Positions 3,428 through 45,839 are shown, counted from the first letter of the stretch. The stretch is DNA of 64,000 nucleotides from Chloroflexota bacterium (GCA_016190485.1 JACPQN010000066.1:8446-72445), one strand, 5' to 3'. A program made the numbers and translations. Notes: generated by a model not told the origin, from the letters alone.

Positions 3428-4417
<990 letters not shown>

Positions 4418-9504: not shown

Positions 9505-10548
9505 ATGTTGAAAAGAGCACTCCTTCTGGCCGCCCTGGGAGTCCTGGGGTTGACGGGGCTGGCGTTCCTGGCGGAGGCGGCGCCGCCACGGCAGGCCACG
9601 GCCGCGCCCCTGGCCGTGGGCGATCCGGCAAAGGGAGGCTATCTGGCCCGCCTGGGGGGCTGCGCGGGCTGCCACGGCCAGAACTACGCCGGCCAGCGTG
9701 CCGATGGCACCGCCGGCGCCCCCTTTGGTATTACCCTCACGGCGCCGGGAGGCGGCGGCACCGCGCCGGCGTCCAACATCACGCCTGATGCCGAGACCGG
9801 CATCGGCCGCTGGTCTGATGCCGAGCTGGTGCGCGCGATTCGGGACGGCATCCGGCCCGATGGCAAGGTCCTGTACCCGGGCATGCCCTACGCCAGATGG
9901 CACACCATTGCCGACGACGATATGGAGCACCTGGTGGCCTTCCTGCGCTCTAACCCGGCCGTGCAGAATAAGCCCCCGGCGCGCCAACTCCAGGTGGAGC
10001 CCGCCCAGCCCCGCTTTTCCGCGCCTTCGCCCAAGTCTTCTCCTGGAGAGAGCGCCGGACGCGGTGAAATCCTGATTACTGTGGCCAACTGCGCCAACTG
10101 CCACACGCCCCGGACAGCCGAGGGTACCCTGGATCCCAGCAAGTATCTGGCCGGGAATATCCTGGGCACTGGGGCAACCGCGCAGGCGGCGGCCAACATT
10201 ACGCCGGACCGCGCCACGGGCATCGGCGACTGGACGGTGGAGCAGATTGCCACCGCCATCAAGCTCGGACGGCGGCCCAACGGGACGGCGCTCAGTGGCG
10301 CTATGGCGACGCAGATCAACAATAGGTTCCAGTTCCTGAGCGATACCGACGCCCGCGCCGTCGCCCTCTACCTCAAGTCCATCCCGGCGGTGCAGAACCG
10401 GCCGGCCGCGCTCCTGCCGGCCCCTGCCGCCATGCCCCGCACGGGGGATGACGCGCCAGTGCTCCCCATGGCGGGTGCAGCGGGCCTGGGCGCCCTCGCC
10501 CTGGGCCTGGGCTGGCTGGGCCGTCGACGAGCCAGCTCCCCAGCCTGA
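9505..10548 (+). CDS. diheme c-type cytochrome with C-terminal hydrophobic/RRR tail
   Basis: signal peptide, two CxxCH motifs (CAGCH, CANCH), C-terminal Gly/Ala-rich hydrophobic stretch followed by RRR. Confidence 0.7.
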   Translation: MLKRALLLAALGVLGLTGLAFLAEAAPPRQATAAPLAVGDPAKGGYLARLGGCAGCHGQNYAGQRADGTAGAPFGITLTAPGGGGTAPASNITPDAETGIGRWSDAELVRAIRDGIRPDGKVLYPGMPYARWHTIADDDMEHLVAFLRSNPAVQNKPPARQLQVEPAQPRFSAPSPKSSPGESAGRGEILITVANCANCHTPRTAEGTLDPSKYLAGNILGTGATAQAAANITPDRATGIGDWTVEQIATAIKLGRRPNGTALSGAMATQINNRFQFLSDTDARAVALYLKSIPAVQNRPAALLPAPAAMPRTGDDAPVLPMAGAAGLGALALGLGWLGRRRASSPA

Positions 10549-14490: not shown

Positions 14491-14530
14491 TGCCAGACCC
14501 TCACCCTAGCCCTCTCCCACAGGGAGAGGG
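14437..14530. repeat. hairpin repeats: CTCTCCTTCCCC/GGGGAAGGAGAG palindrome plus family copy 1 (CACCCT..CCCTCTCCC-aca-GGGAGAGGG)
   Basis: perfect inverted repeats read directly in sequence; same family recurs at 15135, 34093 and 37446. Confidence 0.8.
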
Positions 14531-14695
14531 AACCGTGTTGTCATTCTGAGCGAAGCGAAGAATCTGGGGCGGTGGAGTCCGTGTATCTGCATCGTCCTCA
14601 CGCCAGTCTCCCTAAGGGAGAGAGGAAGCGCTTGCTTTAGTTGTCACGCACCCAGTTTGCACCTCTCGCACGATGCCGTAGCCTCTGGCTCATGC

Positions 14696-30258: not shown

Positions 30259-30312
30259 CCGCGGCCTTAGGGCTGAGGACTGAGGACTGCTGGGCCGGCA
30301 AGCACGTGGCCG

Positions 30313-31107: not shown

Positions 31108-31369
31108 TGGCTGACTCCCTTCCTCCTCGCGCTGGCGCTCACTGGAGTTGAAGGCGACGGCCCGTCCCATGCTTTCGAATGACGATGGCGCCACTCGTGC
31201 CGCTGCAACTGGCAGGATCATAGCATAGGGGTAAAGTCCCATTCCAGCCACTAGCCGAGGACTGAGGACTGCTGGCCGTGGGGGTAGGGCAAGGGGTGGT
31301 GGCAGTGGGCGGTTGACAGGGGGCACTAGAACGCATATTCTTGCGGCAGCATAGGTTAGGAGGAGATGA

Positions 31370-32536
31370 GTGGCTTACAGCCCCGTTTACGATGCCCCTC
31401 CGTTCACTGATTTCGCTTCAGTAACGCCGGATACACGCCTAGAAGAGCTGAATCTGAACTGGCGGGAGCAGGACCTTCCAGAGGGATCCCGTACAAAGCA
31501 CGTCCATCGTCTCCATCCCTACCTGGGCAAATTCGTTCCTCAACTAGTCGAAATCTTCCTGAGGAAGTACCAACCAAGGGTTGTGTGTGACCCATTCTGT
31601 GGATCAGGAACGACGCTGGTTGAAGCCAACGCTATGGGCATAGATGCAATTGGGTGTGACATTTCTCCCTTCAATGTCTTACTTACGAAAGTCAAGACTG
31701 CCGAGTACAACATTGCCAAATTGGAAAAAGAAATCAAGGACATTGTTACGAGGATTACTCTTGCCTTGAAGCCAGGGCTTTTTGAAGGTGAGGTCGAAGA
31801 CACTGACAATGCATATTTGCGAAGCTGGTACGCGCAGCGAGCAAGGGTCCAGCTTCTTTTCTTTAAGTCCCTGATTCCACAGTACGAACATCAAGATCTT
31901 CTCAAAGTGATCCTTTCGAGAGCAGCACGGTCGGCTAGGCAAACCACCCATTTCGACTTGGATTTCCCAAAGCGGCCGCAGACAGAGGATTACTATTGCT
32001 ACAAACATGGGAGGACGTGCCAGCCCACGAGCGATGCGCTGGGCTTCTTGACTCGCTATTGCTGGGACACGCTTAGAAGGATACGCGCTTTCTCGGAACT
32101 GCGAACTCGTGCTGCTGTGCTCTATAAGTGTGACGACTCTCGTAACATGGAGTTCCCAGAAGTAGACATGATACTGACCTCCCCGCCGTATGTGGGACTC
32201 ATCGACTACCACGAACAACACCGCTATGCCTACGAGCTGCTTGAAATGCCCATGCAAGAGGAGCAAGAAATTGGCGCCGCAAAAAGAGGTGCCTCGGAAA
32301 CAGCTCAGCGTGCGTATATAGAGAATATAGGCACAGTGTTTCGGAACCTTCGCGAGGGACTGCCTGCAGATGGGGTAGCGGTTATAGTGGTGCATGACCG
32401 TCGCAGGCTCTATGAAGGATTGGCAGAACAACTTGGGTACCGACAAGAACTGGAGTTACGCCGGCATGTAAACCGACGTACAGGCCGGAGAGCGGGAGAT
32501 TTTTACGAAAGCGTGTTGGTGTGGCGGAAGACATAG
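31370..32536 (+). CDS. DNA amino-methyltransferase (N4-C or N6-A; motif I before TRD before motif IV = alpha-like order)
   Basis: motif I VVCDPFCGSGTT, motif IV TSPPY; GC clearly lower than flanks; AGGAGG RBS. Confidence 0.75.
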   Translation: MAYSPVYDAPPFTDFASVTPDTRLEELNLNWREQDLPEGSRTKHVHRLHPYLGKFVPQLVEIFLRKYQPRVVCDPFCGSGTTLVEANAMGIDAIGCDISPFNVLLTKVKTAEYNIAKLEKEIKDIVTRITLALKPGLFEGEVEDTDNAYLRSWYAQRARVQLLFFKSLIPQYEHQDLLKVILSRAARSARQTTHFDLDFPKRPQTEDYYCYKHGRTCQPTSDALGFLTRYCWDTLRRIRAFSELRTRAAVLYKCDDSRNMEFPEVDMILTSPPYVGLIDYHEQHRYAYELLEMPMQEEQEIGAAKRGASETAQRAYIENIGTVFRNLREGLPADGVAVIVVHDRRRLYEGLAEQLGYRQELELRRHVNRRTGRRAGDFYESVLVWRKT

Positions 32537-32663
32537 ACCCTGAGGCGCTCGCAACCAGCGTAGGTCAGTGTTTCAGCGCAGGACCAGACATAGGGAAGCG
32601 AATTGTCGAGGCATTCCAGCAGACCTTTGCCAACCTCTTGCACGCAGAGTGCAAGCAAAGCGG

Positions 32664-33269
32664 ATGCGAGAGATCATTAGGGACAAGAATCCTTATTTAT
32701 ATCGCGCCAGCGGCGTAAACACTTGCCAGGAAATAGTTCAGCGGGCGCTGCAAGACTACATTAGCGCTAGTGTGGAGAATAATTTTGGTGCCTTCTTTGA
32801 GGCGGTTGCTAGGATATTCTCAGGAGGGGTTAAGCCCGTTGGGGGTGGTGAGGTTGACCTGGATGTGCGGAAGGCTGATGTGGCTTTCCTCTATGCGATG
32901 AAGTCGGGATCGAAGGGCTTCAACTCGTCAAGCTACGACAAAGCCAGGCGCGACTTATTATCGGCAGAACGCAGGCTACGTCAGGACAAAGTGCGAACGG
33001 AGAAGCGGATTGCGTTTGCGTATGGCAAGAGACAGGAAACAGATAAAGATGGCATTATCCAGCTGACTAGTAAGGCTTTTTGGGGAGAAGTAAGTGGTGA
33101 TCCACTCTTCTATAAGAAGCTGTTAAATGCCTGCGCGCTGTTATCTCCTTTGTATACTGCTGATCTACAGGCACCCTATGACCGTCTATTGGAAGAAGCT
33201 CATTCGCTGTTTTGTGAAGAAGATGGAATTAACTGGGATAAAGTGCTGAAGTTAGTTTTTGGTGAGTAG
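32664..33269 (+). CDS. candidate Type II restriction endonuclease partner of the methyltransferase (start uncertain: ATG 32568 or 32664, or GTG 32521 in another frame with a frameshift)
   Basis: low-GC ORF immediately downstream of the MTase; GEVDLDV...AFLYAMKSG could be a D...(D/E)xK core; an overlapping frame-1 ORF 32521..32718 also reads protein-like, suggesting a possible frameshift. Confidence 0.35.
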   Translation: MREIIRDKNPYLYRASGVNTCQEIVQRALQDYISASVENNFGAFFEAVARIFSGGVKPVGGGEVDLDVRKADVAFLYAMKSGSKGFNSSSYDKARRDLLSAERRLRQDKVRTEKRIAFAYGKRQETDKDGIIQLTSKAFWGEVSGDPLFYKKLLNACALLSPLYTADLQAPYDRLLEEAHSLFCEEDGINWDKVLKLVFGE

Positions 33270-33271
33270 CT

Positions 33272-33298
33272 TCATGCGCATCCTGCACTTCGCTGACC
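33272..33298 (+). repeat. 27-bp direct repeat, copy 1 (tcATGCGCATCCTGCACTTCGCTGACC = duplicate of the sbcD start)
   Basis: identical 27 nt at 33272-33298 and 34143-34169. Confidence 0.9.
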
Positions 33299-33447
33299 CT
33301 CGTTCGTGGTCCGCCAGCCAGGTGCTCACTTCGTTCAGCATGACATACTAGGGCACCAGTTGAGGACGACCTGGATGTTATTACGTGGGGATATAAGCCT
33401 GCTCGTATGCAACTAGGACAACAGTAGCCAATGATAAAACGAAAGAG

Positions 33448-33714
33448 GTGGTAAAGATGGCCCGATGCATCGTTGACAGCTGCACGGACTTCGCGACCCA
33501 TAATATTGGTATTCGGCTACGGCGACTAAACACCTCGGCAGTATGGGCTCCCAATACCGACGCCTTTGTTTGCGATGCCCACGCGACTGCAGGATTCAGG
33601 ATTCAGATTTTACTCACACCAAACTCAACAGGAACAATCCGGACAGAAGTTAGTTCGGTTCCTCCAGGCAGGATAGTTCGACGAACGACTCCGATCATCC
33701 ATCCGGCGCAGTGA
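33448..33714 (+). CDS. hypothetical small Cys/His-containing protein
   Basis: 88 aa ORF in the low-GC segment, CIVDSC...CDAH; no confident family. Confidence 0.25.
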   Translation: MVKMARCIVDSCTDFATHNIGIRLRRLNTSAVWAPNTDAFVCDAHATAGFRIQILLTPNSTGTIRTEVSSVPPGRIVRRTTPIIHPAQ

Positions 33715-33851
33715 TTATTTGTGCAGGACGGATTATATATGCAAAGCCGGAAGCGCTTGCACTACCTATATGTGGTGGTGAAGGCGCTCGAGACCGATGC
33801 CTTTGTGCTGACCGCATACTTGACCGATAGAGTAAAGAGGGGAGTCCAGCT

Positions 33852-34055
33852 ATGGCCGGAAAACTCGTGAAGATCTGGTACGATCCCGAAGGTGACTATC
33901 TGGAGGTGATCTTCGAGCAAAAGGAGGGCTACTTCCGGGAGACGGCCAGCGACCAGGTGATGGAGAAGGTCGACGTGGAAGGTAATGTCCTCGGCTTCTC
34001 TATCTTGCGGGTGAGCGCTCTGAAACAGAAGCCGCTAGAAGTCGCCCTGTCCTGA
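33852..34055 (+). CDS. DUF2283 family small protein
   Basis: KIWYDPEGDYLEVIF pattern (YDxExDxLxI) typical of DUF2283; GGAG RBS. Confidence 0.55.
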   Translation: MAGKLVKIWYDPEGDYLEVIFEQKEGYFRETASDQVMEKVDVEGNVLGFSILRVSALKQKPLEVALS

Positions 34056-34092
34056 ACGGTAGATGCCGCATCCCGCCTTGGCCCGTCATTGA

Positions 34093-34139
34093 CAAGCCCT
34101 CACCCTTACCCTCTCCCAGAGGGAGAGGGAGGTAGCTAA
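34093..34139. repeat. hairpin repeat family copy 3 (CCTCACCCT-TA-CCCTCTCCC-aga-GGGAGAGGG)
   Basis: read directly; just upstream of sbcD. Confidence 0.8.
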
Positions 34140-34142
34140 GAG

Positions 34143-34169
34143 TCATGCGCATCCTGCACTTCGCTGACC
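34143..34169 (+). repeat. 27-bp direct repeat, copy 2 (authentic sbcD start)
   Basis: identical to 33272-33298. Confidence 0.9.
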
Positions 34170-35455
34170 TCCATATCGGGGTGGAGAACTACGGGCGGGT
34201 GGACCCTGCCACGGGCCTCTCCACCCGGCTGGGGGACTTCCTGCGGGCGCTGGACCAGGTGGTGGACTACGCGCTGGCCAACGAGGTGGACCTGGTGCTC
34301 TTCTGCGGCGACGCCTACAAGAGCCGGGATCCGTCCCAGACCCACCAGCGGGAGTTCGCCCGCCGCATCATGCGCCTGACGGGCGGGGGGGTGCCGGCCT
34401 TCCTGCTGGTGGGCAACCACGACCTTCCCTACGCGGCGGGGCGGGCCACGGCGCTGGACATCTACCAGACCCTGGGGGTGCCTGGCGTGACCGTGGGGCG
34501 GGAGCTGGGGACGCAGGTGGTGGAGAGCCGCCGCGGGGAGCGGCTCCAGATCGTGGCGGTGCCGTGGCTCAACCGGAGCTGGCTGCTGGCCCAGGAGGAG
34601 CACAAGAACCTGGCCGCCCGGCCCCTGAACGAGCTGATGGAGGAGAAGCTGCAGCGGGTGCTGCAGGTGGAGTTCTCCCGCCTGGATCCGGAGCTGCCGG
34701 CGGTGCTGGCGGGCCACCTGGCCCATGCCGAGGCGGTGCCGGGGTCGGAGCGCCGGATGACAGTGGGCAGCGACCCGGCGTTCCTCCTGAGCACCCTGAC
34801 GGACCCTGGCGGCCCTTCGACAAGCCCTTCGACAAGCTCAGGACACCGCTCAGGACGCGGCATGGTGGACTACGTGGCCCTGGGGCACATCCACAAGCAG
34901 CAGGCGCACCAGAGCCGGGGGGTGCCTGTGGTCTACGCCGGCAGCCTCCAGCGGGTGGACTTCGGCGAGGAGGAGGACCAGAAGGGCTTCTACGTGGTGG
35001 AGATCGATCCGGCGCGGCCCGCGGGGGAGAGGCTGCGCTCCTACGACTTCGTGCCAGTGGAGGCCCGGGCCTTTGTGACCATCCGGGTGCGGTCTCATAG
35101 TGGGAACCCCACGGAGGCGGCGCTGCGGGCCATCGCGCGGCGGGAGCGAGACATCCGGGACGCCATCGTCCAGGTGCAGGTGGAGCTGGCCGCAGGCCAG
35201 GAGGGCCTGCTGGACGACGCGGCCATCAGGCGCGCGCTGGCTTCAGCGCACTACATCGCAGGGATCAGCCGCGAGGCGCCGGACAGCCCGCGGCGGCGTC
35301 TGGGCGAGGTGAAGGTGGAGGAGCTGGCGCCGCTCCAGGCGCTGGAGCTGTACCTGCGGGCCCGGGAGACGCCGTCGGAGCGGACGCAGGCGCTGCTGGA
35401 GTACGGTCGCCGGCTTATTGAGTCGCCTGAGGCGGCCAGCGAGATGGCGCCCTGA
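34145..35455 (+). CDS. sbcD: exonuclease SbcD (Mre11-type phosphoesterase) carrying an in-frame minisatellite insertion
   Basis: MRILHFADLHIG, GDxYK, GNHD metallophosphoesterase motifs; insertion encodes GGPSTSPSTSSGHRSG at 34811-34857. Confidence 0.85.
   Translation: MRILHFADLHIGVENYGRVDPATGLSTRLGDFLRALDQVVDYALANEVDLVLFCGDAYKSRDPSQTHQREFARRIMRLTGGGVPAFLLVGNHDLPYAAGRATALDIYQTLGVPGVTVGRELGTQVVESRRGERLQIVAVPWLNRSWLLAQEEHKNLAARPLNELMEEKLQRVLQVEFSRLDPELPAVLAGHLAHAEAVPGSERRMTVGSDPAFLLSTLTDPGGPSTSPSTSSGHRSGRGMVDYVALGHIHKQQAHQSRGVPVVYAGSLQRVDFGEEEDQKGFYVVEIDPARPAGERLRSYDFVPVEARAFVTIRVRSHSGNPTEAALRAIARRERDIRDAIVQVQVELAAGQEGLLDDAAIRRALASAHYIAGISREAPDSPRRRLGEVKVEELAPLQALELYLRARETPSERTQALLEYGRRLIESPEAASEMAP
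34811..34857 (+). repeat. minisatellite (cccttcgacaag x2 + ctcaggacaccg units) inserted in frame in sbcD
   Basis: 12-bp units read directly; same units at 37001, 40461, 43512 and in reverse orientation intergenically. Confidence 0.85.
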
Positions 35456-36605: not shown

Positions 36606-37406
36606 ATGGCTATGAAGGATGTCTCGCGGGCGCAGGCCGTGGTCTTCGACCTGGACGGCACCTTGGTGGACACCTATGCCATCAACCTGAAGGCCACGCA
36701 GCACGTCCTGCGGCAGTTCCTGGGGCGCCTGCCGCCGGAGGAGGAGGTGGCGCCCCACTACGGGGCGCCGCTGCGGGAGATCATGGCGCACTTCGCGCCG
36801 GGCCAGGAAGCGGCCATGGTGGCCGAGTTTGAGGCCTACTACCTGGAGCATCAGGAGGCGATGGTGCGGCCCTTTGCGGGCGTCTCCGAGATGCTGCGAG
36901 TGTTGCGGCAACGGGGTTATCCCCTGGCGATCCTCTCCAACAAGCGCAAAGAGCCGGGGCTGCGGGAGCTGCGGGCCTGCGGGCTGGCGGAGCACTTCCG
37001 CCCTTCGACAAGCCCTTCGACAAGCTCAGGACACCGCTCAGGACACCGCTCAGGACAGCGCTCAGGACGCAGCTCGGTGCTGTTCCTGGAGGACCTGCGG
37101 GCGCCCAAGCCGGCGCCGGAGGCGCTGCGGCAGTCCGCGGAGCTGCTGGGGGTAGACGTGCGGCGAGTGCTCTACGTGGGCGATAGCGTCCTGGACGTGC
37201 AGTGCGCCCGGAAGGCCGGCGCCCGGAGCGCGGCCGCGCTGTGGGCCGCCGGGGATGGTTCGGCTGGGCTCACCACAAGTGGTTCGGCTGGGCTCACCAC
37301 AAGCCGGGAGCGAGTGCTGGCCCAGGAGCCGGATCACGTGCTGACGTCGGTGGCGGAGCTGCTGGCGCTGTGCCCGCCACTGATCGGTGATCCGCGGGAG
37401 AGGTGA
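36606..37406 (+). CDS. HAD-superfamily hydrolase (phosphoglycolate-phosphatase-like) with two in-frame repeat insertions
   Basis: motif I FDLDGTLVDT, motif II ILSNK, motif IV GDSVLD; insert PSTSPSTSSGHRSGHRSGQRSG (37001-37070) and tandem 24-mer GSAGLTTS x2 (37256-37303). Confidence 0.75.
   Translation: MAMKDVSRAQAVVFDLDGTLVDTYAINLKATQHVLRQFLGRLPPEEEVAPHYGAPLREIMAHFAPGQEAAMVAEFEAYYLEHQEAMVRPFAGVSEMLRVLRQRGYPLAILSNKRKEPGLRELRACGLAEHFRPSTSPSTSSGHRSGHRSGQRSGRSSVLFLEDLRAPKPAPEALRQSAELLGVDVRRVLYVGDSVLDVQCARKAGARSAAALWAAGDGSAGLTTSGSAGLTTSRERVLAQEPDHVLTSVAELLALCPPLIGDPRER
37001..37070 (+). repeat. minisatellite insertion in HAD gene
   Basis: gcccttcgacaagcccttcgacaag + (ctcaggacaccg)x3-4. Confidence 0.85.
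37256..37303 (+). repeat. perfect 24-bp tandem duplication in HAD gene
   Basis: ggttcggctgggctcaccacaag(t/c) x2. Confidence 0.85.
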
Positions 37407-37445
37407 TGATATTCAGCCTAAGCCCGTCAGAAAGGCGAGCTGGGT

Positions 37446-37497
37446 AGATTTCACCCTCACCCTATCCCTCTCCCCTCGAGCCTCGAGGGCGAGGGAA
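37446..37497. repeat. hairpin repeat family copy 4 (TCACCCTCACCCT-AT-CCCTCTCCC-ctcgagcctcgag-GGCGAGGG-AAC)
   Basis: read directly; loop itself contains the palindrome CTCGAG..CTCGAG. Confidence 0.75.
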
Positions 37498-37735
37498 CCG
37501 CGAGGCGGCGTGCTAGCAACTCCCGCATTTGCCTACCCACCACGAGCACAGGGACGTTCATGGTGGGCTCATAATGCCACCACAAACTCAAGATTCTTAC
37601 GGCGGCGAGCCTAGCGAAAACAATTCCAACGAACTTTTGAAATTCGCCCAATTACGGAGCTAAGTCGATCCATAATGTGACGTGGGGTGATGATATCGGG
37701 ACAGGTGCATACAAAAGCGAACGAGGAGGGGAAAG

Positions 37736-38077
37736 ATGGAACCTCAGGAGTCTGGATTCAATGTTCAGCTTCAGTGGCGACAGAGGTGGCAATCCGGGCT
37801 TGGGCAAGCGGCTGAACAGGGTGAAAAATCGTCGACGCTTGGCATTTGCGGTAGGAAAGAACATCTCCAGTTGCGCTTCTATTCATCAGATTTTGCATCA
37901 GATTTTTCCGCCACCGCCCAGTTTTCTTGGCGACAAGTTATGCAAGCTTTGATTAACAATAACCCTGGCCTCTTTGGAGTTCTTGAAGAGCCACTCCATC
38001 ACGTCTTCGCCGATGCACTGATAGAAATGGGGTTTGAAGTGCCCGGCTTCCCACCGGAAGATGACGACGATTTCTAG
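37736..38077 (+). CDS. hypothetical small protein with acidic C-terminus (EDDDDF)
   Basis: 113 aa ORF in an AT-rich (about 50% GC) island, GGAGG RBS. Confidence 0.3.
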   Translation: MEPQESGFNVQLQWRQRWQSGLGQAAEQGEKSSTLGICGRKEHLQLRFYSSDFASDFSATAQFSWRQVMQALINNNPGLFGVLEEPLHHVFADALIEMGFEVPGFPPEDDDDF

Positions 38078-38186
38078 AAAGACGCGGCAACACCGTAGAA
38101 ATGCTCATAGCGCTTGAGGTCTCTTTTCAAGAAAGGCTCGCTCGAATATCTTTCTTGCAGGCCTCGCGCGGAAAGGGAGAACTACT

Positions 38187-39488
38187 ATGGCGAACATTGA
38201 TGATCACCTGATTCGAAATGTGTTCGACCAATACACTCAGTTGGAAAATCGCCTGACCAACGCCTTGTTTCAGGTCTTTCGCCACGAGCCTGACATAGCT
38301 AGGGAGTTCGTGGTGTGGGCAGGCGGGCCGCCGCACCAACGCGAGCTGCTGCAACTCGCATGCCAGATGACGCCCGCGTCAAATCTAAGTGAACTCGAGA
38401 AAGAGGACTTCCCACGGGCAAGGACCATCCCAGACGGATGGATATTTGATCCCGAAGGCGAGTGGGCTGTAGTGATCGAAAACAAGGTGACTGCAACGCT
38501 AGAGCGCAATCAGATAGAGGGTCACATAACGACAGCGAGGGCTCTCGGATTCAGGGCTATCTTTCCTGTAGTCCTCACCGCGGATCGGGAGGAACCCCCA
38601 GATTTGCGCCAGTGGGCGCCCGCCGGAGTCACTGTGCGGTGGCGGCCGTGGAGAGAGCTATACGTGGAGCTGAAGCCGAAGGATTCGAGCTGGTGGGTTA
38701 AAGAGTTCCTCGGCTACATGGAGGAATTGGAGTTCAGATTTCACGAAGGAGGCAATTCGGAAGTGGAGCTGACAGGCTTTTCTGGGATCCCCTTCGACAA
38801 GGAACACGGGTACAACGCACTCCAGGCGCGTGCCCAATTGCTGGGCCTCATGGCGGCATTGCGGAAACATCCAGGGCTGCTGACGTGCTACCCAAATGTC
38901 CAGCCAGAAGGAAAAAAGACACCGACGTCGGGCGCCATGTGGGACACGATAAAATTCTCCCCTGAGGTCCGCACAACAGCGCCTCACCTTACCCTCGTCA
39001 TCGACCGCGATGACGTGCGACTTCAAGTGATTTTGCCCAATGCGGACAAAACCAAAGGCTGGCAGCGCCTGGTCAGACGAAAAAGAGAAGCGGTCGAGGA
39101 GATTCTGGAGCTCGTCCATGGGCAGGTCCGGAATCTCAGGGGCAGGCCGAAGTGTTTTCTCGACCTGTATCAGCGTCATTTCCTTTACTTGGGGGCGGAG
39201 GGCGTTATAGACGCCAGATTGGAAGTTGACCTGGACGCCGTCTTGGACAAGCAGGACGCGAAGATAGACGGGAAGGTTAAAACGCGCAGAGAATGGTGGC
39301 CGGCTGTATCTGGTCTCATTGCTGCCCCAAAGACGGGGGCAAATCTTGAGCTTTCCCTGGTGTTAAGGTACCGTTACTCAGACAGTGCCACGACGAGTGT
39401 CTTAAACAGCCCAGACTTTGTCGAGGAGGCCGCCGCGGCCTTCATTGCCCTTCACCCCTGGTATGACTTCCTCACCCAAGAAGAGTAA
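38187..39488 (+). CDS. hypothetical protein with N-terminal PD-(D/E)XK nuclease-like core
   Basis: E(20)...IPDGWIF-x12-AVVIENKV matches the E/PD/ExK restriction-endonuclease-fold arrangement; ~300 aa C-terminal region without recognisable motifs; low GC. Confidence 0.45.
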   Translation: MANIDDHLIRNVFDQYTQLENRLTNALFQVFRHEPDIAREFVVWAGGPPHQRELLQLACQMTPASNLSELEKEDFPRARTIPDGWIFDPEGEWAVVIENKVTATLERNQIEGHITTARALGFRAIFPVVLTADREEPPDLRQWAPAGVTVRWRPWRELYVELKPKDSSWWVKEFLGYMEELEFRFHEGGNSEVELTGFSGIPFDKEHGYNALQARAQLLGLMAALRKHPGLLTCYPNVQPEGKKTPTSGAMWDTIKFSPEVRTTAPHLTLVIDRDDVRLQVILPNADKTKGWQRLVRRKREAVEEILELVHGQVRNLRGRPKCFLDLYQRHFLYLGAEGVIDARLEVDLDAVLDKQDAKIDGKVKTRREWWPAVSGLIAAPKTGANLELSLVLRYRYSDSATTSVLNSPDFVEEAAAAFIALHPWYDFLTQEE

Positions 39489-39580
39489 ATCGAGCAAAGG
39501 GGCCTTGACTAGCCGAATTGCGTGGCCTTCTGCTGCATTTGCACATTTGTGTGACCAAGCCATTTTCCTGGAGGAGTAGT

Positions 39581-41275
39581 ATGAAGATCACCTGCTACGG
39601 GGGGGTGGGGCAGATCGGCGGCAACAAGGTGCTGCTGGAGGACGGCCTTACTCGCCTCTTTTTCGATTTCGGCATCCCCTTCGGCGACCGGGCACGTTTC
39701 TTCGAAGAGTACCTGAACCCGCGCCCCGGCGCGGGGCTGCTGGACGTGATGGAGATGGGGCTGCTGCCGCCCCTGCGCGGCATCTACCGCAGCGACCTGG
39801 TGCCGGCCGGCCGGTTCTGGGAGCGGGTGGAGCGGTCGCAACACCTGAGGCCCCACCTGCGAGACCTGGAGCGCCTGGACGGGGTGCTGGTCTCCCATGC
39901 CCACGTGGACCACAACGGGTATCTCTCCTTTCTTGATCCCGGAATCCCCATCTACTCCTCGGCCATGACGGGGTTCATCGCCAAGGCCATGCAGGACAGC
40001 GGACAGACGGACTTCGAGCGGGAGTCGGTGTACGCCGTGCCCCGGAAGGAGAGCGGCGGCGTGCTCACTACGGTGACCTCCAGCAGGTCGAATCCCGCGC
40101 CAGCGCTGCAGCGGCCCTACTACTTCCCCGACCTGGCCGATCTCAGCGCCGAGGCCCTGGACTTCTGGCGTCAGACGCCCGCGGCCCGTCCCATGGATGC
40201 CGTGCTCCCCCGACAGGCGGAGGGCATCGGCGAGCTGCCGGTGCGCTTCTTTCCCGTGGACCACTCCATCTTCGGCAGCAGCGCCTGCGCGGTGGAGACC
40301 TCCGCCGGCTGGGTGGTGTACACCGGCGACCTGCGCTTCCAGGGTGGGACGGCGGCACTGACTCGGGACTTCATCCGGGAGGCGGCCCGGCTCCGCCCGC
40401 GGGTGCTCATCTGCGAAGGGACACGCCTGTCGCCGGAGGGGAACGCCGAGGCGCTCTTCGGCCCTTCGGCAAGCTCAGGACACCGCAGGCTCAGGACGGC
40501 GCCCTTCGGCAGGCTCAGGACGGCGCCGGTGACGGAGGAGCAGGTGCGGGCCAACGCGCTGCGGGCCATCGGGGGCGCCAGCGGCCTGGTGGTGGCCGAC
40601 TTCGGGCCCCGCAACATCGAGCGGCTGCGGGCCTTCCTGGAGATCGCCCGGGAGACCGGGCGGCAGCTCGTGGTGCTGGACAAGGACGCCTACCTGCTGG
40701 GCGCGATGCGCCTGGTGGACTCCGGTGTGCCGGGGGTGGAGGAGGCGCCCAACCTGCTGGTGTACCAGGACCTGCGCGCCACCCTGGCCCTGTGGCAGCG
40801 GGACCTGCGCGACCGGCTGGCCAGCAGGATCGTTGGCCCCAGCCAGGTGCAGGCGCACCTGGGGGAGTTCATCCTCTGCTTCAGCTTCTGGGACATCAAG
40901 AACCTCATTGACATCGATCCGGGGGAGGGCCTCTACCTCTACTCCTCCAGCGAGGCCTATAGCGAGGAGCAGGAGCTGGACCTGTGGCGGCTGCGCAACT
41001 GGCTGCAGCACTTCGGCCTGACGCCCCGGGGTCTTCCCCAGGAGAGCACCGACGAGCGGGGCAGGAAGGTCTACAGGACGCCCCCCGGCGAGGAGGGCTA
41101 CCACGCGTCGGGCCACGCCACGGGCGACGAGATCCTGGCCATGGTGCGGGAGATCAACCCAAAAACGGTGGTGCCGGTGCACACGGAGCACCCGGAGCTG
41201 TTCGTGGAGGGACTGAAGGGGTCCGGAATCGAGGTGCGGTTGCCGGCGTACGGCGAGGCGCTGGAGTTCGGGTAG
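39581..41275 (+). CDS. MBL-fold beta-CASP nuclease (RNase J / Artemis-type family) with in-frame repeat insertion
   Basis: SHAHVDHNG (HxHxDH), ...ASGHA and PVHTEHPE (beta-CASP motifs B/C), N-terminus ITCYGGVGQIGGN like RNase J; insert GPSASSGHRRLRTAPFGRLRTAP at 40461-40523; GGAGGAG RBS. Confidence 0.7.
   Translation: MKITCYGGVGQIGGNKVLLEDGLTRLFFDFGIPFGDRARFFEEYLNPRPGAGLLDVMEMGLLPPLRGIYRSDLVPAGRFWERVERSQHLRPHLRDLERLDGVLVSHAHVDHNGYLSFLDPGIPIYSSAMTGFIAKAMQDSGQTDFERESVYAVPRKESGGVLTTVTSSRSNPAPALQRPYYFPDLADLSAEALDFWRQTPAARPMDAVLPRQAEGIGELPVRFFPVDHSIFGSSACAVETSAGWVVYTGDLRFQGGTAALTRDFIREAARLRPRVLICEGTRLSPEGNAEALFGPSASSGHRRLRTAPFGRLRTAPVTEEQVRANALRAIGGASGLVVADFGPRNIERLRAFLEIARETGRQLVVLDKDAYLLGAMRLVDSGVPGVEEAPNLLVYQDLRATLALWQRDLRDRLASRIVGPSQVQAHLGEFILCFSFWDIKNLIDIDPGEGLYLYSSSEAYSEEQELDLWRLRNWLQHFGLTPRGLPQESTDERGRKVYRTPPGEEGYHASGHATGDEILAMVREINPKTVVPVHTEHPELFVEGLKGSGIEVRLPAYGEALEFG
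40461..40523 (+). repeat. minisatellite insertion in beta-CASP gene (variant units cccttcggcaag / ctcaggacggcg)
   Basis: read directly. Confidence 0.8.
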
Positions 41276-41285
41276 GCAGACTTGC

Positions 41286-43179
41286 GATGTTGCTCTCAGA
41301 AGTCGAACTTGAAAATTTCAAGGGTGTATTCACGAGACAGCGCATTGGCGGGTTGAGACGAGTCAATACGCTCATCGGCCGGAACAATGGTGGCAAGACA
41401 TCTTTGTTGGAAGCCTTGTGGGCTGTCCGAGACTCTCTGGTTGGTGGGCAAGTGGCAGAAGATATGACGACGTTGTTGCCATTTCGTGAGGCTGATAGGG
41501 TGATGAGAATAAGGCTGACATTTGAACTCGAGCAGGAAGAATACCAGCAACTACGCGACCACTTGGAAGTCGATCTCCAGCCTAATATCACTACGATCCC
41601 TGCGGCCTGCACCTGGGAATTTGTTTGGGAGCCAAGCCTGGGCACTGGAAACAGGCTACTTCCAACTTCATGTACATTACGGCTGAATGACCGAAACTTG
41701 ACGGTTTGGGTCGCAGATAGTGCGGGTGATTTGAGGGCTGCGCGCTGGGATGAGGCGCGATCGTTCTACGTCAGTAGAAGGCAGGGACTGGTGCTTCAGC
41801 TTCACAGCATCGGGAGCGTCCAATCGCGTCTACGAGTACAAGGTCCCAATGATGCAGCGCAGTTCGGGATGAATCTTGCGCTTGGCTTTGCCCAAAAGTT
41901 GAGGTTTCGCAGAACAGTCCGGGTGGCCGACGATCGGTCGCCAGCGTCACAGAACAGCGAGCTAGATGAGCAAAGCAAGAACATCTCTCAAGTGCTTCTC
42001 ACGCTGAAAAACAACGAAGCGCAGGTTTTCGAGAGGATCGAGAACACTCTGTGCAGAATTCTGCCTGAAGTACGGGGACTTAGTACGCCCTTAGAGGGTA
42101 CTGAAACGGCCCTAAAGCCAGCCCTCGAAGCTAGCAGACTTGAGAAGCATGCCTTTTACCTGTCTGAAATGGGTTTCGGCACACAGCAGGTACTTGCTCT
42201 CCTGACTACAATCTTTTGCTCTCCCAGTGGAAGCCTAGTCTTGATCGAGGAACCCGAGATATGTCTTCATGCGGATGCCCAAAGAAGTCTCGCAAGTTTT
42301 TTGGTGGAGTACTCAAAGAAAACCAACACGCAATTTATAATGACTACTCATAGCCCCATATTCGCTCCGCAAGGAAGCGAAGGGGCGACTTACCTTGTTA
42401 AGTGGGACCAAGAGAATGGGACTACTTATTCCCGCGTTCGCGAGGGAGAAGCATCGATAATCAAAAGAGAGTTGGGATGGCGAAACGCGGATCTTTTCAT
42501 GAAAGACGGGGTTGTCTTTTGGGAGGGGGAGAGTGAGGATGCTGCAATGCCTATCCTTATTGATGCACTCGGTTATGGAGAAAGGATGCCCGCCATCGCT
42601 TCCATCAGTTTGCGTGGCAGTGTAGCGGATAGGCTGAGAGTGCTACGTGAGTTCCTTCGCTATCTTCAGGGTTCAGACCTGAAACCCTTTGTTTTCTCTG
42701 ACGACGACGAGCACGTGGCGACAACTATTCAGAACTTAATCGCTGAAGGTCTTCTGCCGCAATTGAACTACCACATTTGGGGAAGGAGTCCTGGAAATCT
42801 TTCTGACGTATTGTCAGGGTTGGAATTTGAGGATAATTTCCAGGTTTCGCAACTTATTGAAGCTGCCAACGCCCAGGCAGCGGAATCGGGTCAAGCTGAG
42901 AGACTAACTACTGACGGATTCAGGAAAAGTCGACAGACCATTAAGACAAAGAAAAAGACAAGCAAAGCACTCAACGACTATTTTCACAATAAAGTTGGTC
43001 GAGGGTTGGATAAACCCACGCTGAATAAAGCGTTAGCTCTTATGGTCGCTCGTGAGCTTCGAAATGAAATGCCGAGGTCTGTTCAAACATATGAATTCAA
43101 GGGGGCGATAAAAGATCTGTTCGATGTCCTGTATCCCGTTCGTAAAGGAGAGGCCGAGCAACCCGAGGACCAGATGTAG
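41286..43179 (+). CDS. OLD-family ATP-dependent nuclease (ABC ATPase + TOPRIM), class 1 / orphan GajA-like
   Basis: Walker A GRNNGGKTSLLEAL, Walker B LVLIEEPEICLH, H-loop FIMTTHSP, TOPRIM-like VVFWEGESED and DxD FVFSDDDEH; GC about 50% versus about 68% in flanks. Confidence 0.65.
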
Positions 43180-43181
43180 TC

Positions 43182-45839
43182 ATGGTCCCTCTGAAGCTGG
43201 CGCTGCGCAACTTCATGGCCTACCGGCGGCTGGAGCCGCCGCTGGACTTCACGGGCATCCACGTGGCGTGCCTCTCCGGGCCGAACGGGGCCGGCAAGTC
43301 GGCCCTGCTGGATGCTATGACCTGGGCCCTGTGGGGCCAGGCCCGGGCCCGGTCCGACGACGACCTGATCACCCTGGGCGAGAGCGAGATGGAGGTGGAG
43401 CTGGAGTTCGGCCTGGGGGAGGAGCGCTACCGGGTGCTGCGGAAACGGACCCGGGGCGTCCTGCGGCGGCCCGGTCAGTCCATCCTGGAGCTCCAGATAT
43501 GGGGTGGGGATGGCCCTTCGACAAGCCCTTCGACAAGCTCAGGACACCGCTCAGGACACCGCTCAGGACAGGGCCCTTCGATAGGCTCAGGACAGAGCCT
43601 GTTCCGCCCGCTGACGGGGAACACGCTGCGGGAGACGCAGCGGCAGATCGAGGGGCTGCTGCGGCTGGACTACCAGACCTTCATCAACAGTGCGCTGCTT
43701 CTCCAGGGAAGGGCCGACGAGTTCACCCTGAAGGCGCCGGGCGAGCGCAAACGGGTGCTGGGGGAGGTGCTGGGCCTCTCCCGCTACGACGCCTATGAAG
43801 CCCTGGCCAGGGAGCAGGCCCGCCGCCGGGAGGGCGAGCTGCAGGGCCTGCGGGCCGAGATGACCTCCCTGGAAGAGCAGGTGAGCCACCGGGAGGAGTT
43901 TGAGTCGGAGCTGCAGGGGATCCGGCGGGCGCTTCAGGAGATGAGCATCCAGAGCAAAGCCCAGGAAGAGCGGCTGCGTGCGCTCCAGGAGGCGCAGCGG
44001 CTGCGGGCAGAGAAGCAGGCCCGCCTGGTCGAGGCGCGTGCTCGGACGCAACAGGCTGAGGTGGAGCTACAGGAGCAGCGGCAGCGAGAGGGGGCGCAGA
44101 TGGCGCGCCTCCAGCAGTTCCGGGAGATGCTGGACCAGCGGGAAGCCATCGAGCAGGGGCTGGAGCGCTATCGGAGGCTGGTCGCGGCCGACGATGCGCT
44201 GTCGGCCGGGCTGCAGCAACTGGTGGCGCTGCGGGAGCAGGCCACGGCGCTGGAGCGTACGGTGGAGGCGGCCAGGAGCCGGCTGGAAGCACAGGCCCTG
44301 GTCTTAGAGCGGGAGACCACCGGACTGCGAGAGGTGGCGGCGCGGCGGAGCGGCTTGGCCGAGGCGCAGCAGGCGGCGCGGCGGACGCTGGCGGCCCTGG
44401 CGGAGAAAGACGCAGAGCTCAAGAGCCAGCGGGAGGCGCTGGAGGCGCTGGCGGGGCGCATCGGCGTGCTGGAGCACAGCAATCAGGAGATCACCCGCCA
44501 GGGGCAGGAGATCCGGGCCAAGGCCGAGCAACTGGCCCACCCCGGCGTCCCGGGGGTGTGCCCCCTGTGCGGCACTGAGCTGGGGCCCGAGGGTCACCAG
44601 CGGATCCTGGAGGAGTACCAGGGGGAGCTGGAGCGCCAGCGGGAGCGCTATCGCGAGAACGACCGCGCCATCAAGGAGCTTCAGAAGGAGCAGCAACAGC
44701 GCCAGGCCGGCGCGGCGGCCCTGGAGGCGGCCACGAACCGAGAGCGGGCCGCGGCCCAGGCCCAGGCGGCCACTGCGGCGCAGGGGCTGGCGGAGGCGGA
44801 GAAGGCGGCCACATCCCTGGTCGAGGCCGAGGCCCGCCTGAAGACGATCCAGGAGGGCCTGAGGGCCAACGCCTATGCGCCGGCGGAGCAACAGGCGCTG
44901 GTGGAGGTGCAGCGCCAGATCGCCGGCCTGGGATATAACCAGGAGGAGCACCGGCGCGTGCGCGAGGAGCTGGCCGCCTCAGGCGAGTGGCTCGCCAAAG
45001 GCGAGCGCCTCCAGGAGGCCCTGCGCCGATTGCCCGCGGAGGAGACGGAGCTGGCCAGCGTGCGGGAGGCCGCGGCCCGCTGGGAACAGCGGGCCGCCCA
45101 GGAGGCGGCGCTGGGCGCGGCGCTGGCGGAGGAGCTGGCGGCCCTGCCCGATACCGCCCAGGAGACGGTGGCCGCCCAGCAGAACTTGGAGCAGACCCGC
45201 TCTCAGCTCATGCAGGCCAATGCCGAGCTGGGGCGGGTGCAGACCCTGGTGGACCGCTGCCGGGAGCTGGAGGGCAACATGCGGGAGCGGCGGCGGCAGA
45301 TGACCCAGACGGAGGTAGAGAAGGGAATTTATGAAGACCTCTCCCTGGCTTTCGGGCGTCGGGGGGTGCAGGCGTTGCTTATCGACGCGGCGCTGCCGGA
45401 GCTGGAGGAGGAGGCTAACAGACTCCTGGGTCGCATGACTGACAACTGCCTCAGCCTGCGCCTGGAGACCCAGCGCCAGACCCGCGGCGGCGGCATGGCG
45501 GAGACGCTTGACATAAGAATTGCGGACGAGCTGGGGACCCGGGCCTATGAGCTGTACAGCGGCGGCGAGGCCTTTCGGATCAACTTCGCGCTGCGCGTCG
45601 CCATCTCCAAGCTGCTGGCCCGGCGGGCAGGGGCGCCCTTGCCGACCCTGGTGATAGACGAGGGCTTCGGCACTCAGGACGCTGCGGGCCGGGAGAAGCT
45701 TATCGAGGCGGTGAACGCCATCGCGGGGGACTTCGAGCGGGTGCTGGTGATCACCCACATCGACGAACTGAAGGACGCCTTCCCGGTGCGGATCGAGGTG
45801 ACCAAGACGCCGGAGGGGTCACGGGTGGAGGTGGTGTGA
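43182..45839 (+). CDS. sbcC: exonuclease SbcC (Rad50/SMC-like ATPase) with in-frame minisatellite insertion
   Basis: N-terminal Walker A GPNGAGKSALLDA, long coiled coil, zinc hook CPLCG, C-terminal signature/Walker B; insert at 43512-43597. Confidence 0.85.
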   Translation: MVPLKLALRNFMAYRRLEPPLDFTGIHVACLSGPNGAGKSALLDAMTWALWGQARARSDDDLITLGESEMEVELEFGLGEERYRVLRKRTRGVLRRPGQSILELQIWGGDGPSTSPSTSSGHRSGHRSGQGPSIGSGQSLFRPLTGNTLRETQRQIEGLLRLDYQTFINSALLLQGRADEFTLKAPGERKRVLGEVLGLSRYDAYEALAREQARRREGELQGLRAEMTSLEEQVSHREEFESELQGIRRALQEMSIQSKAQEERLRALQEAQRLRAEKQARLVEARARTQQAEVELQEQRQREGAQMARLQQFREMLDQREAIEQGLERYRRLVAADDALSAGLQQLVALREQATALERTVEAARSRLEAQALVLERETTGLREVAARRSGLAEAQQAARRTLAALAEKDAELKSQREALEALAGRIGVLEHSNQEITRQGQEIRAKAEQLAHPGVPGVCPLCGTELGPEGHQRILEEYQGELERQRERYRENDRAIKELQKEQQQRQAGAAALEAATNRERAAAQAQAATAAQGLAEAEKAATSLVEAEARLKTIQEGLRANAYAPAEQQALVEVQRQIAGLGYNQEEHRRVREELAASGEWLAKGERLQEALRRLPAEETELASVREAAARWEQRAAQEAALGAALAEELAALPDTAQETVAAQQNLEQTRSQLMQANAELGRVQTLVDRCRELEGNMRERRRQMTQTEVEKGIYEDLSLAFGRRGVQALLIDAALPELEEEANRLLGRMTDNCLSLRLETQRQTRGGGMAETLDIRIADELGTRAYELYSGGEAFRINFALRVAISKLLARRAGAPLPTLVIDEGFGTQDAAGREKLIEAVNAIAGDFERVLVITHIDELKDAFPVRIEVTKTPEGSRVEVV
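43512..43597 (+). repeat. minisatellite insertion in sbcC
   Basis: gcccttcgacaag x2, ctcaggacaccg x3, gcccttcgataggctcaggacag. Confidence 0.85.

Follow-up and report, generated by a model that had tools for sequence, protein, structure and literature searches.

How does a second copy of a gene's start come to lie several hundred nucleotides upstream of the gene itself? This question is raised by a 64,000-nucleotide (nt) stretch of DNA from a Chloroflexota bacterium (GCA_016190485.1, JACPQN010000066.1:8446-72445; the window). Within it the 27-mer TCATGCGCATCCTGCACTTCGCTGACC occurs exactly twice, at 33272-33298 (copy 1) and 34143-34169 (copy 2), with a spacing of 871 nt. Copy 2 is the functional start of sbcD (34145-35455), the gene for the Mre11-type nuclease subunit. 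Copy 1 follows a restriction-modification (R-M) gene pair, and a sequence-only reading had taken the repeat as the footprint of a site-specific or target-primed insertion at the 5' end of sbcD. We lean, with slightly better than even confidence, towards a different explanation. The repeat would be a recombination seam between two alternative contents (alleles) of a slot in front of sbcD, anchored in sbcD, and not a target duplication made by an element.

The repeat is perfect, as that reading had it, and copy 2 carries the real ATG of the gene (34145; exact match, open reading frame (ORF) and Pfam Metallophos). No third copy was found in the window even when 3 mismatches were allowed, and 0 of 100 shuffled sequences matched. 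Copy 1 consists of TC, sbcD codons 1-8 and a further C. Both copies, and all the genes of the island described below, are on the plus strand. The window SbcD aligns over its full length with more than 160 SbcD homologues, and sbcD serves here as the conserved anchor gene. The protein is identical to an NCBI entry ('exonuclease SbcCD subunit D') from a Chloroflexi metagenome-assembled genome (MAG), and this exact protein is recorded once. No conspecific genome was found; the next SbcD proteins come from Dehalococcoidia MAGs and reach at most 68% identity. The host genome is ~69% GC and of Dehalococcoidia type. Measurement bore out the low-GC island that had been reported: GC drops from ~0.69 (0.66-0.73) outside to ~0.50 (0.45-0.56) inside, from ~31300 to ~34100, giving an island of ~2.8 kb. 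Copy 1 opens a 25-codon ORF (MRILHFADPRSWSASQVLTSFSMTY, followed by a stop; 33274-33351), which is unlikely to have a functional role, and we treat copy 1 as non-coding DNA. An apparent extension of the repeat through GTAGCT across a 5-nt gap was considered as a relic of the endonuclease stop region and rejected as non-significant (439 of 2000 shuffles reached its score).

A contig chimera of two strain variants, joined at a shared 27-mer during assembly, could produce such a structure. The source is a MAG, and both alleles plausibly coexist in the population. However, copy 1 is followed by a segment (X, below) that is not the right-hand sbcD context in either allele, so this junction would have to exist in the reads. 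A shared sequence of 27 nt would also be below the usual final k-mers, and comparable structures are found in assemblies made independently, some of them with contigs at the Mb scale. We regard an assembly artefact as extremely unlikely.

The gene pair at ~50% GC immediately left of copy 1 was confirmed, with the addition that its endonuclease gene is frameshifted. The first gene encodes a type II DNA methyltransferase (MTase) of the N6/N4 class (31370-32536; Pfam PF01555, 3.5e-13; PADLOC MTase_II, 2.6e-87). It is apparently intact, and in its translation FCGSG precedes SPPY, so that the S-adenosylmethionine-binding and catalytic motifs are present. The second gene encodes a type II restriction endonuclease (REase) of the EcoO109I/PmeII family (32521-33269; PF14511, RE_EcoO109I, 32568-33269, 6.5e-30), and its plasmid homologues are annotated as PmeII family. 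It is co-oriented with the MTase gene and overlaps its stop, as in a homologous module at locus L002 (OZ244809.1). A 1-nt frameshift near 32630 places ~36 N-terminal codons in frame 32521 and the body in frame 32568/32664-33269; the ORF at 32521-32718 aligns with the N-terminal part of the L002 REase. NCBI calls a protein of 201 amino acids (aa; 201-233 aa here), compared with 247-248 aa in more than 30 homologues. Set against the definition of a type II R-M system, the unit has an MTase and an adjoining REase of a known family, and the REase lacks an intact frame. The system may have become an orphan methylase through decay; a sequencing error is the alternative reading of the frameshift. A metagenome scan with the REase alignment gave no match, although its search patterns were poorly chosen, and scans of viral contigs with the REase and with a small protein from between the copies (below) gave none either.

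The best promoter-like site within 31200-34300 precedes the MTase gene (TTGACA-17-TATTCT, 31313-31341, plus strand, score 10/12). Its TTGACA is the left end of the R-M module, and among 4 homologous modules nothing is conserved upstream of it. An operator-like motif, AGAACGCATATTC (31328-31340), overlaps this promoter. Near the -10 box, (T/G)AGAAC-N4-ATTC is invariant in the 4 modules (window 31328-31340; L002 8062-8075; L090 ~3692-3705; L088 ~3782-3794), within surrounding DNA that is ~66% identical. This sequence is one mismatch from the Gram-positive-type LexA box, GAAC-N4-GTTC. We did not retain a LexA-box reading of AGAAC-N4-ATTC, which has a single match in the window and at least one match in 25 of 100 shuffles.

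Homologous modules abut a genuine start codon in 3 other genomes, that of sbcD in L002 and L090 (WHTN01000056.1) and that of purH in L088. The L002 module has the same promoter, an MTase with 70.5% and an REase with 70.9% aa identity, and a GC content of 48-50% within a ~70% GC genome. Its REase stop lies 6 nt before a single genuine sbcD ATG, with no 845-bp segment between them. Window 31327-33298 and L002 8061-10025 form one continuous alignment at 66.5% identity, from the promoter through sbcD position +25, so that copy 1 occupies the homologous REase/sbcD junction. L002 has one copy of the 27-mer site there, but it is a distant relative (SbcD 64%). In L090 the same module ends 8 nt before sbcD, and a second contig from a sequencing-run assembly (L091) has an identical REase/sbcD junction. 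In L088 (3753-5744; REase 67% identical) the module sits in a purine-biosynthesis operon, with a promoter that begins 4 nt beyond the upstream stop and an REase gene whose stop overlaps the purH ATG, so the R-M module also occurs away from sbcD. Between the window and L002 the R-M DNA shows ~34% divergence, whereas the two 27-mers are identical at 27 of 27 positions, although copy 1 is non-coding. The duplication is therefore much younger than the REase/sbcD junction. On these alignments we read the junction as old and the 27-mer duplication as young.

What, then, lies between the copies? The sequence-only reading had listed a Cys/His small ORF, a DUF2283 ORF and a hairpin repeat. All three are present, although the Cys/His ORF is conserved and R-M-associated and not a random ORF. 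To these we add a truncated toxin gene between the Cys/His ORF and DUF2283. Segment X comes first (33299-33456, 158 nt) and consists of a 47-nt GC-rich piece followed by a low-GC spacer with the ribosome-binding site (RBS) of the next gene. It matched nothing in the window or in any fetched locus. Its candidacy as the remnant of a second REase was rejected, as blastx against five REases gave only chance-level matches.

The next gene encodes an 85-aa C-X4-C...C-X2-H protein (33457-33714, true start ATG 33457). Its 7 homologues (43-73% identity) share invariant C4, C9, C39 and H42 and WAPNT-AF motifs, and it matched no Pfam, NCBIfam or PADLOC family. In all 3 contigs with enough flank (L084, L085 and L087) its gene stands beside PF14511 REase genes. 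The REase stop and the Cys/His ATG are separated by 15 nt in L085 (gene 1201-1458), the order is MTase-REase-Cys/His in L087 (2073-2321), and the Cys/His gene is upstream of the REase in L084 (2090-2338). By alignment, the REases of these three contigs are only distant relatives of the window REase, and the close homologues of the window module (L002, L090 and L088) never carry the Cys/His gene. The protein is probably an accessory factor of EcoO109I-family R-M units, a predicted zinc-binding regulator. A THAP-like C2CH fold was considered and set aside: it amounts to a remark on residue spacing, and neither the AlphaFold model (pLDDT, the predicted local distance difference test score, 66) nor Foldseek against the PDB (no match below E = 1) was informative.

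Toxin-antitoxin (TA) remains follow. A toxin gene of ~103 codons is reduced to its last ~40, recognizable at ~33739-33870 by nt homology to L090. An intact DUF2283 antitoxin-like gene follows at 33852-34055 (PF10049, 9.7e-8), with 67% aa identity to L094 4350-4547. Window 33796-34053, covering the toxin 3' end and DUF2283, is 71% identical in nt to L090 3349-3606, and homology to L090 runs ~30 nt past the DUF2283 stop (12 of 2000 shuffles reach its score). Full-length toxin genes are present in L090 and L094, whereas the window has the antitoxin family without an intact toxin. The C-terminus of the L090 toxin weakly matches DUF4258 positions 47-70 (E 0.18), and NCBIfam gave no names for the REase, the Cys/His protein, DUF2283 or the toxins. 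Two resemblances were examined and dropped. The MRIL start of the L094 toxin is not a fused sbcD start, as its homologue in L090 begins with VRVI, and the motif is a feature of the toxin family. A TTGACA after DUF2283, considered as a relic of the R-M promoter, is a match of 6 nt only.

The segment ends with a hairpin resembling repetitive extragenic palindromic (REP) elements (CCCTCTCCC aga GGGAGAGGG, 34097-34132, plus strand; 9-bp stem in the predicted fold) that carries GGGAGG, a possible sbcD RBS. Copies occur in the window at 14498-14531 (91%) and in distant Dehalococcoidia (L003 5971-6004, L072 16696-16729, L058 and L056). The 845-bp unit was not found elsewhere in the window or in 172 loci, and an 898-bp unit had no match in a phage collection. 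With the accessory gene of a second R-M system and a decayed TA pair side by side, the segment is a patchwork and not a discrete element. The MTase/REase pair stands outside the repeat-bounded segment and is therefore not the DNA that was 'inserted with duplication'.

The association of the Cys/His gene with REases raises the opposite history, in which MTase-REase-Cys/His-TA-sbcD came first and a copy of the sbcD start, with X, was inserted later between REase and Cys/His. We consider this quite unlikely. The Cys/His gene adjoins PF14511 REases in 3 of 3 informative contexts, GC is a uniform ~50% over the whole 2.8 kb, and recombination between the 27-mers would give exactly the L002 arrangement. 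However, the Cys/His-linked REases elsewhere are distant relatives of the window enzyme, and the close homologues of the module lack the gene. A duplication dating back to the split between L002 and the window could not have kept 27/27 identity. A variant, which we hold to be no less improbable, has an incoming MTase-REase-sbcD(1-25) replacing an older R-M pair through R-M homology, with the L002 type arising by deletion; no REase remnant is detectable in X.

Comparison of sbcD loci showed counterparts of the R-M module and of the TA remains, and other systems, before sbcD elsewhere. L002 and L082 have flanks that are ~95-96% identical and slot contents that differ. L082 (3123-6000) holds a different MTase and a DndB/DpdB-like 663-aa protein, and L002 (7920-9999) the MTase and EcoO109I-like REase; the swap is bounded by the stop of the upstream PEP-mutase gene and the position before the sbcD ATG (ATG-1). 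Directly upstream of sbcD in other loci are PemK-type toxins (L003, L081 and L012), HicA (L004), VapB-like genes (L030), Mrr-like genes (L009 and L029), a DUF1156-type MTase (L037) and DUF4258/DUF2283 pairs (L069, and decayed in L064 and L075). L094, a metagenome contig of the window clade (SbcD 62%) with the same sbcD-S2P/CBS protease synteny, has the order GlyRS-toxin-DUF2283-HicA pseudogene-sbcD, with the toxin at full length. L090 contains both modules of the window in the opposite order: GlyRS-Phd-KTSC-toxin-DUF2283-promoter-MTase-REase-sbcD. We interpret the space before the sbcD start codon as an exchangeable slot for low-GC defence and addiction cassettes that abut the ATG. In the window, two slot alleles that relatives each show singly, promoter-MTase-REase/sbcD and toxin-DUF2283/sbcD, would stand in tandem, joined at sbcD +25.

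Decay of the TA pair is also visible in the slot of relatives. L069 has an intact DUF4258 toxin and DUF2283 between GlyRS and sbcD; in L064 and L075, which are close to L069, DUF2283 is kept and the toxin is deleted to a short remnant (~9690-9760). This toxin-first decay is the same as in the window.

We searched 163 sbcD loci against themselves for extra copies of the sbcD 5' end. Such copies (22-105 nt) were found in 4 further Dehalococcoidia loci, and in 3 of these they bracket HicAB or VapBC cassettes. L012 has a PemK gene, a ~105-nt copy with HicBA, a 50-nt copy with HicBA, and then sbcD. L050 has a 105-nt copy (96%) with HicBA before sbcD, and L037 a DUF1156-type MTase, then a 65-nt copy with VapBC before sbcD. 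L143 has a 22-nt exact copy (7946-7967; in the gene, 8007-8028) of sbcD positions 7-28, 55 nt upstream; with ~33 nt in between, it resembles a scar left by the loss of a cassette, or else a minimal event. In L012, L037 and L050 the copies that bracket cassettes all begin within 2 nt of the ATG and end at varying positions: +50 and ~+105 in L012, +65 in L037 and +105 in L050. The window repeat ends at +25. As a control, every ORF of at least 250 aa was screened in 89 sequences, with the window excluded: 5' duplications were present in 3 of 83 sbcD genes and in at most 2 of 1005 other ORFs (Fisher p = 0.004), and those 2 turned out to be non-genic repeats. The control-screen hits in L073 and L007 were rejected as non-coding repeats or spurious ORFs. 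An ancient local duplication unrelated to the island would be indicated by relatives that have the duplicated 27-mer without an insert; none of the relatives checked shows this.

Two of these loci share a cassette. The HicBA cassettes (UPF0150/HicB and HicA) of L012 (528-1205) and L050 (4509-5113) have the same +105 junction and HicB proteins that are 67.5% identical. Between the two hosts SbcD identity is only 60%, and the cassette is missing from the closer relatives of either host. The cassette and its junction have therefore either moved horizontally or been lost many times. In L050 the stop of the ORF on the left sbcD fragment overlaps the antitoxin ATG (ATGA), which suggests translational coupling.

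Are these repeats the product of a dedicated recombinase? The absence of an integrase or transposase, already noted from the sequence, held in a domain search of the ORFs from 19.7 to 47.3 kb of the window, which returned no such domain. No inverted repeats were found at the segment ends (33299/34142), and no integrase lies between the repeats in L012, L037 or L050. A recombinase of the tyrosine or serine type encoded elsewhere could use the first ~25-105 nt of sbcD as attB, and the 871-bp unit and the HicBA and VapBC units would be small mobilisable cassettes whose attP resembles the sbcD start. Repeated use of the same gene end in distant lineages would fit this, as would the tandem stacking in L012 and the single junction shared by the HicBA cassettes of L012 and L050, and the same class offers a precedent in the 20-bp ssrA direct repeats with the DsiB integrase (PMC3146451). 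We nevertheless think it unlikely. No integrase was seen in or near the five loci or in the 27 kb of the window searched, and no conserved cassette-end motif is visible at the junctions. The repeat lengths differ by cassette (25, 50, 65, 105); such lengths describe variable blocks of identity and do not locate the crossover points. The window insert is a patchwork of decayed genes and not a unit.

The L037 copies are the most telling against reciprocal exchange between diverged att sites. The copies have 8 mismatched nt in codons 2-8, every one of them synonymous, with a TCT/AGC serine pair among them, and 1 in codons 9-21. Such synonymous differences are typical of two functional sbcD alleles, so that one of the stretches is foreign. 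Near-identity further downstream is expected if the left copy is wholly resident and the right copy switches from donor to resident sequence at a crossover near +24. This mosaic would reflect a homologous crossover within sbcD combined with an illegitimate join at +65; after Campbell integration, or after attP x attB exchange, diverged alleles should differ on both sides of the crossover, and L037 shows differences on one side. The donor/recipient mosaic is clear in L037; the window copies are identical, and there it is not visible.

The same observations bear on a duplication made by a transposon-like or target-primed element, through a 27-nt staggered cut in sbcD and gap filling. A perfect direct repeat does flank foreign low-GC DNA, and R-M units lacking mobility genes are known to insert with long target duplication (PMC2853133). 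However, the window has no terminal inverted repeats, transposase or reverse transcriptase, and by these features and its 27-bp repeat it does not qualify as a transposon or insertion sequence. In the three other cassette loci every copy begins at the ATG and the variation is confined to the 3' end, a pattern not accounted for by a staggered cut; the L037 copies differ as two functional alleles do, and the cargo consists of gene fragments native to the slot in relatives. We judge this origin very unlikely. The proposal of an insertion at the 5' end of sbcD therefore survives in part. DNA was added and the gene start regenerated, since L002 has a single start, but a site-specific or target-primed footprint is not supported, given an insert whose toxin/DUF2283 pieces are native to the slot (L094 and L090), the variable 3' ends and the L037 mosaic.

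The history we favour for the recombination seam would run as follows. DNA with one slot allele and the beginning of its sbcD would meet a chromosome with the other allele, and either allele could have been the resident. At one end, homologous recombination within sbcD, which is highly conserved, would provide the anchor; the other, non-homologous end would be joined illegitimately at sbcD +25. Such a route is homology-facilitated illegitimate recombination, which is equivalent to one-ended break repair on an allelic template. The resident sbcD would leave its first 25 nt and the preceding TC behind the REase, and a complete start would be supplied next to the gene body. In the window this would join an MTase-REase/sbcD allele to an X-Cys/His-toxin remnant-DUF2283/sbcD allele. 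The resulting 871-bp unit could be lost again by recombination between the two 27-mers. The only terminator-like site between 31341 and sbcD is a weak hairpin inside the MTase gene, there is no further promoter-like site, and all genes are on the plus strand; sbcD may be read from the R-M promoter and co-transcribed with the cassettes.

Several points weigh against the seam. Illegitimate joins are rare, yet the genomes compared would require at least 4 of them, each independent. The repeat extends to the TC before the ATG, which calls for a donor that was almost identical there or for a coincidence with a chance of 1/16. The Cys/His gene usually adjoins an EcoO109I-family REase and is here 187 bp away from one, which hints at former unity and favours another order of events. 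Segment X is not accounted for, and for the window lineage neither parental allele nor a true empty site is to hand (nearest SbcD 68%). The +105 junction shared by L012 and L050 could also stem from a cassette with an attachment sequence of its own. This junction, the TC identity and the closeness of the REase to the Cys/His gene are the points that leave most room for a trans-acting recombinase or for the opposite history. In another scheme, the first ~100 nt of sbcD would act as a docking site for an unrecognised system of recombinase-free TA and R-M cassettes that each carry a copy of the sbcD start; we give it little credence. It would further have the cassettes excise as circles between the repeats and re-enter other genomes at sbcD, which we find similarly hard to credit. 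Movement would then depend on a trans-acting recombinase or on homology only, with the addictive cargo stabilizing a deletable structure, and this we likewise rate as improbable.

How does the locus compare with systems already described? The route proposed here has precedents both in the insertion and substitution of R-M units (PMC2853133) and in sequential displacement arrays (PMC5361080). R-M insertion with long target duplication and R-M allelic substitution are both known (Furuta, Abe & Kobayashi 2010, PMC2853133; Nobusato et al. 2000). As in the former, foreign low-GC R-M DNA lies without mobility genes beside a repeat of a unique target that overlaps a host-gene end. Unlike it, the repeat is 27 bp, short of the 30-bp minimum, and the R and M genes lie outside it; the repeat encloses an accessory gene and a TA remnant, and the same gene end is reused in several lineages and also by TA cassettes. 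The replacement of different R-M systems at one locus, as between L002 and L082, resembles allelic substitution.

Sequential displacement and orphan arrays, built by homology-facilitated illegitimate recombination, have been described for type VI secretion system effector-immunity modules and for Rhs and contact-dependent inhibition loci (Kirchberger et al. 2017, PMC5361080). The sbcD loci share with these a conserved anchor gene beside a variable slot with alternative modules. One side would be joined by homology and the other illegitimately. Old modules are kept and pushed outward, and pieces of the anchor gene split the retained modules in the window, L012, L037 and L050. They differ in their mirrored polarity (modules upstream of the anchor 5' end), in their R-M and TA cargo and in their hosts, uncultured Dehalococcoidia, and the mechanism proposed here is read from sequence comparison.

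The tandem ssrA islands of Dehalococcoides, with 20-bp repeats and the serine-recombinase module DsiB/DsiA (McMurdie et al. 2011, PMC3146451), come from the same bacterial class. They likewise show low-GC tandem accretion at a single-copy essential-type gene with ~20-bp repeats of the gene end. In contrast, those islands are 10-30 kb long and use the 3' end of the transfer-messenger RNA gene, a fixed crossover and a serine-recombinase module, none of which was seen here. Integron arrays are similar in having compact, promoter-poor cassettes, often TA, in one orientation at a fixed site and probably read from an upstream promoter; unlike them, the sbcD loci have no IntI integrase and no attI/attC, and the repeats are copies of the coding start of a host gene.

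Defence-island hotspots also collect varied systems at one inter-gene position, here R-M, DndB/DpdB-like, Mrr-like, DUF1156 MTase, HicAB, VapBC and PemK genes. To our knowledge, the sbcD slot differs from the hotspots in published catalogues in being defined to the nucleotide, at the sbcD ATG, and in leaving duplicated 5' gene ends. A literature search on sbcD as a defence-island hotspot found nothing. Taken together, these comparisons suggest addiction and defence cassettes stacked without a recombinase and anchored on the sbcD 5' end, with no new enzyme or class of mobile element.

Other parts of the window have related features. The weaker 19-nt repeat near the left edge of the island is real: GAGGACTGAGGACTGCTGG is exact at 30275-30293 and 31257-31275 on the plus strand (22 nt at 95%), and none of 100 shuffles reached 2 copies. 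Its second copy had been placed at 31259 and starts at 31257. The first copy lies 20 nt downstream of the enoyl-CoA hydratase stop and the second in host-type GC just left of the island edge. Together they bracket a 982-bp unit with only the enoyl-CoA hydratase gene, whose GC at third codon positions is 0.77 compared with 0.91-0.96 in its neighbours. The unit may be another gene inserted with a target duplication.

Downstream, sbcD (ending at 35455) and sbcC (43182-45839) are 7.7 kb apart. Between them are genes for an S2P/CBS protease, a HAD hydrolase and an MBL/RMMBL nuclease-like protein, and two low-GC islands. The first island (~37300-39700, GC 0.50-0.59) contains a 433-aa ORF (38187-39488) with no Pfam or PADLOC match. 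The second (41300-43200, ~0.50) encodes a 634-aa GajA/AriA/OLD-like ABC-ATPase (41275-43180) whose end lies 2 nt short of the sbcC ATG, the same pattern of a cassette abutting a start codon. A dispersed GC-rich repeat beginning CCTTCGACAAGCTCAGGACA is present in 8 copies in the 64 kb (15310, 34826, 37014, 40463, 40503, 43527, 43575 and 50970), compared with 0.02 expected. Several copies are in frame and add PSTSPSTSSGHRSG-type peptides to SbcD and the HAD hydrolase, and copies also occur in the MBL and sbcC genes.

The locus gives a nucleotide-level view of how integrase-free defence islands build in streamlined, uncultured Chloroflexi. Cassettes accumulate as a readable stack with gene-start scars, and the start of a gene is reused as a recombination anchor. 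R-M, TA and other defence genes would be placed in one transcription unit with the SbcCD nuclease, if they are co-transcribed as the arrangement suggests. If the recurrence holds, duplicated sbcD 5' ends could be used as a marker for young insertions and cassette turnover in metagenomes.

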